Positions 1-3,000 of a stretch of 5,531 bases of DNA are shown here, in pieces. Origin of the DNA: a virus (lineage: Duplodnaviria > Heunggongvirae > Uroviricota > Caudoviricetes); the IMG/VR virus record IMGVR_UViG_2671180429_000018; one strand, written 5' to 3'. The first letter of the stretch is position 1, and the number at the start of each line of letters is the position of its first letter. Position numbers: made by a program.

Positions 1-3000
1 CGTAATTCCGCATCAGTAAGCGCATTGGCCCGCATGTTCTGATACAGGTTGGTAACCAGCCAGTAGTGCGCGTTTGATTTCCACGGATAAGACTCCGCAT
101 CCGGATACAGGCCTCGCTTCCGGCAATACTCGTAAACCATATCAACCAGCTCGCTGACGTTTGGCAGTCCGGCGATAACGGATGCTTCTTCCCGGCACCA
201 TGCAACAAACTGCCCGGGTGATGGCAGAAATGGTCGATTCTGCCGACGGGCTACGCGCATTCCTGCGTTAACCTGTTCCATTGTGGTGATCCCGTTTTCC
301 CGGAAAGCCAGAACCCACTGGCGGCGGATTTCGTTCAGTTCGTTCTGGTCACGGTTAGCCAGGCTCGCCGGGAAAGTTGCCAGTAACTGGCTGAACACAC
401 CGTTGATGATCTGCGCTACCTGCTGTACCTGAGGCTTTTCGTCGTACTGTTCCGGCATGTTGTTGGCGATCCGACGCATCTGCTCACGGTCAAAGTTAAC
501 CATCTGTGCGGCGATGTTTTTCATAGATCCACCCCGTAAATCCAGTCTGTGTTTGTCAGGTCGAGTTTTGGTTTGCTGGCTGTCACGGCTGCCTGTTGCT
601 TGTTACGGTTGATTTCGAGCTGGGTCCACTTGTCGCGGAGTTTGGCCGGGCTAAGCACGTTACCGGACCAGAAGTTGTCCTGGCATGCCCAGCGGAACAG
701 TACACACATGTCGCGATGGTTGCGTCCGTCACGTTCACGCATCAGGCGGATATCGTTAGCCCACCCAGCAAAATTCGGTTTTCTGGCTGATGGTGCGATA
801 GTCTTCACCATGTCAAACATCCACTCTGCGGCGGTCAGGTCTTCTGCTGTCCCCCACTTGCTGCCGCTCTGAATTGCAGCATCCGGTTTAACCACAGAAA
901 GATCGTTTTCTGGCTGGTCAGAGGATTCGCCAGAATTCTCGGACGAATAATCTTTTCTTTTTTCTTTTGTAATAGTGTCTTTTGTGTCCCCCTGTTTTGA
1001 GGGATAGCAATCCCCTAATTTGAGGGATGTTTTATCCCTCGTTTTAGGGGATTTTCCCTCGTTTTGAGGGATGTCCCTCATTTTAGGGGAACCTCCCTCG
1101 TTTTGAGGGATGCACCATTCTGAGATGTTTTTATTTGGTCCAAACATGCCGCCTTGCTGCTTGATAATATTCATTCTGACGAGTTCTAACTTGGCTTCAT
1201 TGCACCGTTTGACAGGTAACTTTGTAATCTCGCTAAGTTGAGAATCGGTGATTCTGTCCATTGGTTTATTCCACCCATAGGTTTTACGCAGAATGGCAAG
1301 CAGCACTTTAAACTGTCGCTTGGTCAGATCTGCGCCTGAATAAGCCTCAATCAGCATATTTGATAGTCTGGCGTAACCATCATCGAGATCTGCCACATTA
1401 CGCTCCTGTTCGGCAAAGTTACCTCTGCCGAAGTTGAGTATTTTTGCTGTATTTGTCATAATGACTCCTGTGGATTGATCCAGTAATTCCCTCAGAATTG
1501 CATATCAATTTGCTTAGAGTCCCCGGCGGCCACCGGGGATTTTTTCTTTGTGATTTCATCAAGCGCATACTTAAAAGCTCTGCTAATCGGACTGATGTCT
1601 GATGCCATGCCAAAAGCACACAAGACCGAAGCTATAAACCTCCAGTCTGTTCTGCTTATCTTCGATTCATGACAGCCAATCATCTTTGCCAGACCGCGCT
1701 GGGTAAGCGTTGACAGGTTGATGAGTAAATCAGTTTCAGCGCGATCAATTTCTCGCTGTGATAGTTTGCTGTAACTTGTTTGTTCCATTTCTTAAGATTT
1801 CCAATAGTGAATAGCTAGTTGAAAGGTATGCGTGGAAACGCATATGGCCTTAGTTGGTCAGATATATTGGGACTCGCTTTGTCAGCGACGTAGGACGAAT
1901 GTCCATTGTGAAAATAGCGGTGTTACTTATGCAGCCAGAAGGTTCTTTTTGCTTATTTCAAGCATTTCGCTTGCTTGATATTTGCCACCAGAAATCTCTT
2001 CGATTTTTGATGCGTATTTAGTTTTCCCAAAAAACTCAGTCTTAGGGAGGAAGCCGTTTTTGAGCCACTTATAGACAGCCCTTTCGCTAACTCCACAAGC
2101 CTTCGCAACTTCAGGGATGCCGACACCTTTAATCGGCTCATCAAGATTTTGCATAGGAATATCCTTTTTCGTACTTTCAGTACGTATTATGGTTGAACTG
2201 AAAGTTTTTGCAAGTGCTTTAGTATCGTACTCATGGTTCAGAATGAAAAAGTGCGCAAAGAATTCGCCCAGCGGCTAGCGCAAGCCTGTAAAGAAGCTGG
2301 TCTTGATGAACATGGTAGGGGAATGGCTATAGCCCGTGCCCTTTCTCTTTCGTCCAAAGGCGTTAGCAAATGGTTTAATGCTGAGTCTTTACCGCGTCAG
2401 GAAAAAATGAATGCGCTTGCGAAATTTCTAAACGTTGATGTTGTTTGGCTTCAGCACGGCACTTCGTTAAATGGAGCGAATGATGAAGATACTCTTTCAT
2501 TTGTTGGCAAATTAAAAAAAGGGTTAGTGCGCGTGGTTGGTGAGGCAATTCTTGGTGTTGATGGTGCCATCGAGATGACCGAAGAGCGCGATGGGTGGCT
2601 CAAAATTTATAGCGATGATCCAGATGCCTTTGGTCTTCGTGTGAAAGGAGACAGCATGTGGCCCAGAATAAAATCAGGAGAATATGTACTCATTGAGCCT
2701 AACACCAAAGTATTCCCGGGTGATGAGGTGTTTGTCAGAACCGTTGAAGGACACAACATGATTAAGGTTCTTGGCTATGACAGAGATGGAGAATACCAAT
2801 TTACAAGCATTAACCAGGATCACAGGCCTATAACGTTGCCTTATCATCAAGTAGCAAAGGTGGAGTATGTAGCTGGTATTCTGAAGCAATCTCGCCATCT
2901 GGATGACATCGAGGCAAGGGAGTGGCTGAAAAGTTCGTGACTTCATCGTCACATAGCTGGTAACCAGTGGCCTGAAGAGACGTTTGGGTAAGGAGGATAG

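Follow-up and report, generated by a model that had tools for sequence, protein, structure and literature searches.

The locus considered here raises two questions: which of the short dyads between a divergent cro and cI are repressor operators, and does cI start without a leader? It lies in a stretch of 5,531 nucleotides (the window) of a virus of the Caudoviricetes (IMG/VR virus record IMGVR_UViG_2671180429_000018). The reading put forward as a whole, with a probability of about 0.9, is that of the 933W right operator (OR) on a 933W-type prophage, with the operators at the sites given below, the third dyad as a by-product and a cI gene that is likely leaderless.

Its sequence identifies the window as the immunity region of Shiga-toxin phage 933W. 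Positions 1900-2960, holding cro, the intergenic region and cI, match 933W (AF125520) and many Stx phages at 100% identity. Over positions 1-5372, 32 differences from 933W are found: 31 substitutions at 12-851, within P and the 3' portion of O, and one at 4212. The span 852-5372, which includes cro, the intergenic region, cI, OL and PL, therefore contains a single mismatch. The element also differs from 933W by an IS629 end at 5374, within the annotated nutL. OR, PR and PRM of this element are the 933W right operator, which is already characterised, and nothing in the finding itself differs from it. The 933W switch has been mapped and biochemically studied for about twenty years, the work on the right operator reportedly being that of Plunkett 1999, Koudelka 2004, Tyler 2004, Bullwinkle & Koudelka 2011 and Bullwinkle 2012. 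An Rfam scan of the window at the gathering threshold gave no matches.

The cro gene (1927-2154, minus strand), recognized as an ORF and annotated as cro in 933W, encodes a helix-turn-helix protein of 75 aa that matches Pfam HTH_17; the match to P22_Cro is weak, below cut-off. The cro gene is preceded by GTACGAAAAAGGATATTCCT (20 nt), with a Shine-Dalgarno AAGGA (2162-2166, minus strand), read from the sequence, 7 nt before the ATG. The cI repressor gene (2233-2940, plus strand), also annotated in 933W, encodes 235 aa with an N-terminal helix-turn-helix and a C-terminal S24 peptidase domain (Pfam HTH_3 and Peptidase_S24). The numbering of residues S41, K42, K46 and E51, named in PMC3317979, fits a count from the ATG at 2233. 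The cII and O genes, identified by Pfam, lie beyond cro.

With the cro ATG at 2152-2154 (minus strand) and the cI ATG at 2233, the intergenic region spans 2155-2232, the 78 bp given in the original prediction, which ended the region at 2233; the functional region runs on to 2240. The lambda-like divergent cI/cro switch proposed there is borne out, with three operators, OR1 and OR2 over PR, and the PRM -10 just before the cI ATG. A divergent repressor with helix-turn-helix and S24 domains and a small helix-turn-helix Cro flank the 78-bp region, operators lie over PR, the distal operator lies over PRM, and a second operator cluster is located at PL, beyond the cI operon.

Operators of the right and left clusters

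Binding of the 933W repressor to OR by DNase I footprinting and EMSA is reported: it occupies three sites, with no cooperativity and with relative dissociation constants OR1 : OR2 : OR3 of about 1 : 14 : 26, OR1 being the highest-affinity natural site (PMC3317979; also PMC5977221 for the affinities). The five natural sites, of 15 bp each, follow published rules: position 2 is G except in one OR2 half-site, positions 4-5 are invariably A and C, position 6 is T in 7/10 half-sites and C in 3/10, and the centre is A-T or T-A (PMC3317979). The window was searched with the pattern NGWACYNWNRGTWCN, allowing up to 1 mismatch. Exactly five matches were found, at 2171, 2195, 2227, 5276 and 5300, against 0.70 expected by chance, and none of 200 shuffles reached five.

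The first three matches correspond to OR1 (CGTACTTTCAGTACG, 2170-2184), a perfect 6-3-6 palindrome, OR2 (TGAACTGAAAGTTTT, 2194-2208) and OR3 (CGTACTCATGGTTCA, 2226-2240). In window coordinates, the 933W record places oR1 at 2170-2184, oR2 at 2194-2208, oR3 at 2226-2240, pR at 2186-2213 and pM at 2198-2225, and the three operators of the phi24B record begin at the same bases as those of 933W. The centre of OR3, CGTACTcatGGTTCA, is the A of the cI ATG, and cI codons 1-3 make up the right half of the site; CGTACT (2226-2231) is paired with GGTTCA (2235-2240), the half-sites being oriented as in OR1 and OR2. Both OR1 and OR3 have zero mismatches to the operator rule, and G is missing from position 2 in just one half-site, which belongs to OR2, in agreement with the published rule. 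In the left cluster, OL2 (CGTACCAATAGTTCT, 5275-5289) adjoins the -35 of PL, and OL1 (CGAACTATTGGTTCA, 5299-5313) lies in the PL spacer; PL itself (TTGATA-17-CATTAT, 5289-5317, plus strand) was found by the promoter scan. Together, OR1-3 and OL1-2 reproduce every published 933W base count exactly, and the counts fail if the third dyad is put in place of OR3.

The comparison covered 10 phages from E. coli, Salmonella, Klebsiella, Citrobacter and Pseudomonas, whose repressors share 40-100% identity in the N-terminal domain. Counted from the A of the ATG of the repressor gene, sites resembling operators are present at -61 to -63, -37 to -39 and -6; the position of OR1 is conserved and the register of OR3 common in the 10 phages. 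From these relatives, the rules in the published text and the GenBank annotation, we infer the exact OR3 sequence and the PRM start. A full-text literature search for operator sequences returned only unrelated primer matches.

Promoters and the start of cI

PR was correctly predicted as TTGCAA-16-CATAAT on the minus strand (2186-2213; -35 at 2213-2208, -10 at 2191-2186). It is the sole sigma-70-like match of the promoter scan in 2050-2350 and coincides with the 933W pR annotation. OR2 occupies its spacer, and OR1 is located at the predicted start. A terminator-like match at 2170-2184 was discarded, being simply the OR1 palindrome followed by T-rich DNA.

The PRM -10 hexamer TAGTAT (2220-2225, plus strand) is indeed situated 7 nt before the cI ATG, at the right end of the pM annotation. 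The description of this promoter as lacking a -35 does not strictly hold: CTGAAA (2198-2203, plus strand), which agrees with TTGACA at 4/6 positions, precedes TAGTAT by 16 nt, in the middle of OR2 and at the left end of the annotated pM. CTGAnA is kept in OR2 of all 10 phages, and its distance to TAnnnT, counted by hand, is 16-17 nt in 933W, MS2 LVA, HK022 and Tritos. All 8 enteric phages have a TAnnnT hexamer 7 nt before the ATG (TAGTAT, TACTAT twice, TATAAT, TATAGT, TATCAT and TATGAT twice), and this variation of the middle bases is the pattern expected of a -10 element.

On these sequence features, a leaderless cI start is likely, because no Shine-Dalgarno precedes the repressor ATG in 933W or the 8 enteric phages, and because TAnnnT stands exactly 7 nt before the ATG in the latter. 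None of GGAG, GAGG and AGGA occurs in the 20 nt upstream of cI, AGTGCTTTAGTATCGTACTC, in contrast to the AAGGA of cro. Given a C at -1 and an A at +1, the PRM transcript would most likely begin at the ATG or 1 nt before it, giving a leaderless cI mRNA as in lambda, where the cI mRNA starts at its AUG (PMC3342100). The legend of Fig. 6b in PMC4848623 credits the published PRM start to Koudelka 2004. A literature search on leaderless 933W or HK022 transcripts returned only statements on lambda and the related CP-933P system.

It is rather unlikely that the annotated operators are right and cI nevertheless has a leader, with PRM starting elsewhere or with most lysogen cI mRNA carrying a leader, for example through initiation upstream of TAGTAT or at a PRE-type promoter in the cro-cII region. 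When lambdoid phages establish lysogeny, long-leader transcripts of the PRE type are expected, and this was counted in favour of such a leader. The centre of OR2 lies 32 bp before the cI ATG; -32 is an unusual position for an activator, and an awkward one if the start is the ATG, as OR2 would then overlie the PRM -35 region. Furthermore, TTGCAA (2208-2213) reads the same on both strands and might therefore in principle act as a rightward -35. A -35 shared in this way, with a PRM start about 10 bp inside cI and OR2 at -42, was rejected because no -10-like hexamer is found 16-18 nt further on, the plus-strand candidates being CTCATG, TCATGG and CATGGT. The fixed place of TAnnnT before the ATG, with varying middle bases, the lack of a Shine-Dalgarno in any of the 8 enteric phages and the pM position in the 933W record also argue against a leader.

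The palindrome before cI

All three dyads of the original prediction are present: TACTttcAGTA (2172-2182), AACTgaaAGTT (2196-2206) and AGTAtcgTACT (2221-2231). The 78 bp hold a fourth perfect 4-3-4 dyad, AGGAataTCCT (2155-2165), at the ribosome-binding site of cro; after mononucleotide shuffling the mean is 0.32 such dyads, with a probability of 0.004 for at least three. As operators, the first two stand, being the cores of OR1 and OR2, and the first extends to CGTACTttcAGTACG (2170-2184). The third is not the third operator. It straddles the boundary between the PRM -10 hexamer and the left half-site of OR3, and is probably a by-product, its AGTA coming from the hexamer and its TACT from the half-site. 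The half-site GTACT is nearly self-complementary, hence the accidental palindrome. The half-sites of this dyad had been described as standing in the opposite order; its TACT arm was paired with the wrong partner, the real OR3 being 7 bp further right. The inverted order is considered an artefact, because OR3 fits the base counts and the register, which is kept in all nine other phages scanned, and because the dyad is absent from all nine.

That the third operator is nonetheless AGTAtcgTACT, as a 15-17-bp site centred on 2226 and bound by the repressor or Cro despite swapped half-sites, is highly improbable. The dyad is genuinely palindromic (5/6 symmetric positions as TTAGTAtcgTACTCA), and by self-symmetry in a 6-3-6 frame it exceeds OR2 (4/6) and OR3 (3/6). 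The record of Stx2 converting phage I (AP004402) even annotates a 'putative operator' at 2218-2234, centred on this dyad. As a 15-mer, however, it has G and T at positions 4-5, versus A and C in every natural site, its centre is C-G, versus A-T or T-A, and it breaks the published 7 T : 3 C at position 6. Moreover, both arms vary uncompensated despite identical recognition-helix residues (933W 41-46), giving ACTAtcgAACT in SI5 and ATAAttgAACT in MS2 LVA; the HK022 counterpart is ATAGttgAACT. The variation of the left arm tracks the TAnnnT of the -10 hexamer. A separate site for another protein (Cro or a host factor), superimposed on PRM, is less probable still: the one argument for it is the palindromic form, such dyads occur here without an operator role, as at the cro ribosome-binding site, and a Cro site is rejected because the dyad is missing from SI5 and MS2 LVA, whose Cro proteins are 89% and 64% identical.

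Choosing operators by self-symmetry alone leads to the wrong third site, and one GenBank record chose likewise. Matching of shared half-sites, combined with the comparison of relatives, gives the correct OR3, and this correction is the useful result.

Comparison with HK022 and lambda

In the proposed working of the switch, a cI dimer would recognize 15-bp sites of the form nG(A/T)AC(T/C)n-(A/T)-n(G/A)GT(A/T)Cn, three of them in OR. From the layout, OR1 would cover the PR start region, OR2 would fill the PR spacer and carry the PRM -35-like CTGAAA at its centre, and OR3 would start directly after TAGTAT, centred on the A of the cI ATG, where bound repressor would block PRM at its start point. 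Occupancy of OR1 and OR2 represses PR; for PRM, occupancy of OR2 is stimulatory and that of OR3 repressive (PMC3317979, PMC5977221).

HK022 (X16093) has the same architecture and register as 933W. Its 15-bp sites are TGAACTTATGGTTCA, GGAACTGATAGTACA and again TGAACTTATGGTTCA, and relative to the cI ATG their cores stand at -63, -39 and -6; OR3 straddles the ATG, and TATAGT lies 7 nt before it, in the same place as the TAGTAT of 933W. The N-terminal domain of its repressor is 49% identical to that of 933W, with K42, K46 and E51 conserved and S41 replaced by P. The OR1 half-sites favour GAAC in HK022 and GTAC in 933W. The HK022 repressor binds adjacent sites cooperatively (PMC8053113), while that of 933W does not (PMC3317979), and their C-terminal domains differ (PMC3202840).

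The lambda OR resembles that of 933W in its divergent cI and cro, in its three partly symmetric operators served by one repressor, and in the repression of PR via OR1 and OR2, with PRM stimulated from OR2 and repressed from OR3. The 933W sites, on the contrary, measure 15 bp instead of 17 bp, do not bind repressor with pairwise cooperativity, and number only two in OL. OR3 is centred on the cI start in 933W and lies between the PRM -35 and -10 in lambda. The centre-to-centre spacings are 24 and 32 bp, compared with 24 and 23 bp in lambda, and OR2 is centred near -32, compared with about -42 in lambda.

A maintenance promoter built into the operators throughout the HK022/933W family, the centre of OR2, which the repressor would leave uncontacted, serving as the -35-like CTGAnA and that of OR3 as both the transcription start point and the start codon of the repressor, is a speculative generalization to which we give low odds; the layout, with CTGAnA in OR2 and OR3 over the start codon, is visible in 10 phages. 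If true, the repressor on OR2 would sit at about -32, one helical turn nearer than lambda cI at about -42, and on the DNA face opposite sigma region 4. Such a geometry would imply a mode of activation unlike the lambda cI-sigma contact, for example one that frees PRM from competition by PR or works through DNA structure. In 933W, this switch governs the stability of the Stx prophage and thereby the release of Shiga toxin.

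Identity and gene content of the region

Over positions 1900-2960, the window matches phage 933W (AF125520) and dozens of Stx1 and Stx2 converting phages with 100% identity. Between 1 and 5372, 933W differs at 32 positions, 31 of them within P and the 3' part of O (12-851), the remaining one at 4212. Given this near-identity, the cI-cro intergenic region is, judged by its sequence, base for base the right operator of 933W, an already known and experimentally characterised system. The clustering of 31 of the 32 differences at 12-851, against a single one within 852-5372, suggests a recombination boundary inside O.

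The minus strand carries P (3' part), O, cII and cro; cI, a DUF3024 gene, a gene for a 153-aa protein, a protein kinase gene and a 54-aa ORF lie on the plus strand. The passengers of the cI operon (3001-5098) are all annotated in 933W: the DUF3024 gene, the 153-aa protein (RuvC-like in the annotation of some records), stk, a eukaryote-type Ser/Thr kinase, and the 54-aa ORF. A strong terminator is found downstream of them, at 5077-5098. Within O, the 933W annotation places six O-binding iterons (ori) at 988-1111, visible as TCCCTCnTTTTnAGGGA-type repeats.

From 5374 to 5531, the window contains a terminal repeat and the transposase 3' end of IS629/IS1203 (IS3 family). These begin inside nutL as annotated in 933W (5335-5401), and the 933W homology ends at 5372. 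Among complete E. coli genomes, this IS junction occurs in one alone, that of O103:H2 strain PV16-126, which has one mismatch along the full length of the window. In that genome, the IS is directly adjoined by an integrase gene and then torS, so the stretch from N to xis has apparently been lost.

The operator sites and the third dyad

In the 933W GenBank record (locus coordinate = window + 1101), oR1 is annotated at 2170-2184 (CGTACTTTCAGTACG), oR2 at 2194-2208 (TGAACTGAAAGTTTT) and oR3 at 2226-2240 (CGTACTCATGGTTCA), with pR at 2186-2213 and pM at 2198-2225. The phi24B immunity-region record gives the same first bases for OR1, OR2 and OR3. The original prediction had proposed three dyads, all of which are present: TACTttcAGTA (2172-2182), AACTgaaAGTT (2196-2206) and AGTAtcgTACT (2221-2231). 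Their enrichment in the 78-bp region is real, as shuffled versions contain on average 0.32 perfect 4-3-4 dyads (P(>=3) = 0.004). A fourth one, AGGAataTCCT (2155-2165), over the cro Shine-Dalgarno sequence, is not kept in Salmonella phage SI5 and is probably fortuitous.

According to the 933W and phi24B annotations, the first two dyads are the cores of OR1 and OR2. The 9-nt core of OR1, ACTTTCAGT (2173-2181), is the exact reverse complement of that of OR2, ACTGAAAGT (2197-2205), and the two sites thus carry the asymmetric central triplet TTC/GAA in opposite orientations; this relation also holds in SI5 and MS2 LVA, not in HK022. The third dyad, centered at 2226, is not oR3: as annotated, oR3 has its center 7 bp further right, at the first base of the cI ATG, and extends past the end of the region first delimited (2233). 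The unusual order of half-sites noted for this dyad is an artefact of mis-paired half-sites.

The 933W repressor recognizes 15-bp sites made of two symmetric blocks about a central base pair, and has five natural ones, OR1-3 and OL1-2 (Bullwinkle et al. 2012, PMC3317979). In each half-site, position 2 is G-C throughout, except in one OR2 half-site; position 3 has an A-T consensus, yet T-A gives tighter binding; positions 4 and 5 are fully conserved as A and C; position 6 is T in 7/10 and C in 3/10; and the central pair is A-T or T-A (PMC3317979). A pattern derived from these rules, NGWACYNWNRGTWCN, with at most one mismatch, has exactly five matches in the window, three in OR (2171, 2195 and 2227) and two in OL (5276 and 5300); 0.70 are expected by chance, and five was reached in 0 of 200 shuffles. 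Every base count over the ten half-sites equals the published one: G 9 and A 1 at position 2 (the exception in OR2), A 6 and T 4 at position 3, A and C in all ten at positions 4-5, T 7 and C 3 at position 6. The central bases are T, A, A, A and T.

Taken as OR3, the third dyad (15-mer TTAGTATCGTACTCA) breaks these rules: positions 4-5 become G and T, the center becomes C, and the position 6 counts change to T 6, A 2 and C 2. Its self-symmetry (5/6) exceeds that of OR2 (4/6) and OR3 (3/6), which explains why it was picked from the sequence alone. The palindrome is accidental, arising because the GTACT half-site is nearly self-complementary and adjoins the AGTA of TAGTAT. The choice does have a precedent in untested annotation: the record of Stx2 converting phage I (AP004402) lists 17-bp 'putative operator' features at 2187-2203, 2218-2234 and 2253-2269, the middle one centered on this dyad. 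The same record places the cI promoter inside cI. Since they agree neither with what is annotated in 933W and phi24B nor with the operator rules in print, these features look like mis-annotations.

The comparison covered the region between the repressor gene and cro in nine other phages with repressor N-terminal domains 40-100% identical: Salmonella SI5, GE_vB_TR and MS2 LVA, HK022, Escherichia Tritos, a Klebsiella phage, Citrobacter Omnitron and two Pseudomonas phages. Counted from the first base of the repressor start codon (ATG), all ten phages, 933W included, have operator-like sites at -61 to -63, -37 to -39 and -6; the third dyad is absent from all nine relatives. At its position, SI5 has ACTAtcgAACT, MS2 LVA ATAAttgAACT and HK022 ATAGttgAACT. 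The changes that destroy it fall at the permitted OR3 position 3 (T to A) or among the central bases of the -10 hexamer. Residues 41-46 of the 933W repressor, including contact residues S41, K42 and K46, are kept in SI5 and MS2 LVA (SKGVSK / SKAVSK, one non-contact position different). The third site straddles the repressor ATG in 10/10 phages (GAACnnATGGTWC). Its right half and the repressor N-terminus are likely to constrain each other, since ATGGTWC (2233-2241) forms codons 1-3 and all ten proteins start with M-V-(Q/H/S).

Promoters and the start of cI

The 78-bp region separates the cro ATG (2152-2154, minus strand) from the cI ATG at 2233. As proposed, PR is TTGCAA-16-CATAAT on the minus strand (2213..2186), the sole sigma-70-like match within 2050-2350, and the -10 of PRM, TAGTAT (2220-2225), lies 7 nt before the cI ATG. 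The description of PRM as lacking a -35 is not quite accurate: CTGAAA at 2198-2203, the left end of the annotated pM, has 4/6 matches and a 16-nt spacer. CTGAnA is kept in 10/10 phages (CTGACA in Tritos), 16-17 nt from the -10 in 933W, MS2 LVA, HK022 and Tritos (counted by hand), and sits in the uncontacted center of OR2.

The six bases directly 5' of OR3 in the eight enteric phages are TAGTAT, TACTAT, TATAAT, TATAGT, TATCAT, TATGAT, TATGAT and TACTAT, in each case ending 7 nt before the ATG. T1, A2 and T6 are invariant and the bases between them vary, a pattern characteristic of a -10 element. Position 2232 is C and 2233 is A, which makes a PRM start at the first base of the cI ATG the natural prediction. 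No Shine-Dalgarno sequence was found for cI; that of cro, AAGGA, lies 7 nt before its ATG. A leaderless cI, as originally proposed, is thus probable and well supported by these sequence features. The legend of Fig. 6b of PMC4848623 attributes publication of the 933W PRM start site to Koudelka 2004.

Layout and operation of the switch

The general interpretation as a lambda-like switch is right. OR1, centered 56 bp upstream of the cI ATG, would cover the predicted PR start; OR2, centered at -32, would fill the PR spacer; and OR3, centered on the ATG, would block PRM at its start. In lambda, the operator spacings are 24 and 23 bp and OR2 lies at about -42, whereas in 933W the centers are 24 and 32 bp apart and OR2, about 32 bp before the cI ATG, is one helical turn closer to PRM. 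At OL (5275-5317), only two operator matches occur, OL1 (5299-5313) in the PL spacer and OL2 (5275-5289) abutting the PL -35; the PL start has no covering site, unlike PR with OR1.

Two OL sites are also all that is described for 933W (PMC3317979, PMC5977221). Its repressor shows no cooperativity in binding to OR1, OR2 and OR3, for which the relative dissociation constants are ~1 : 13.6 : 26.4; PR is repressed when OR1 and OR2 are occupied, and PRM is stimulated by occupancy of OR2 and repressed by that of OR3 (PMC3317979, PMC5977221). Similar repressor concentrations suffice to occupy OR2 and OR3, so that PRM is under partial autorepression; the resulting low repressor level is one reason why Stx prophages are easily induced (PMC3317979, PMC5977221).
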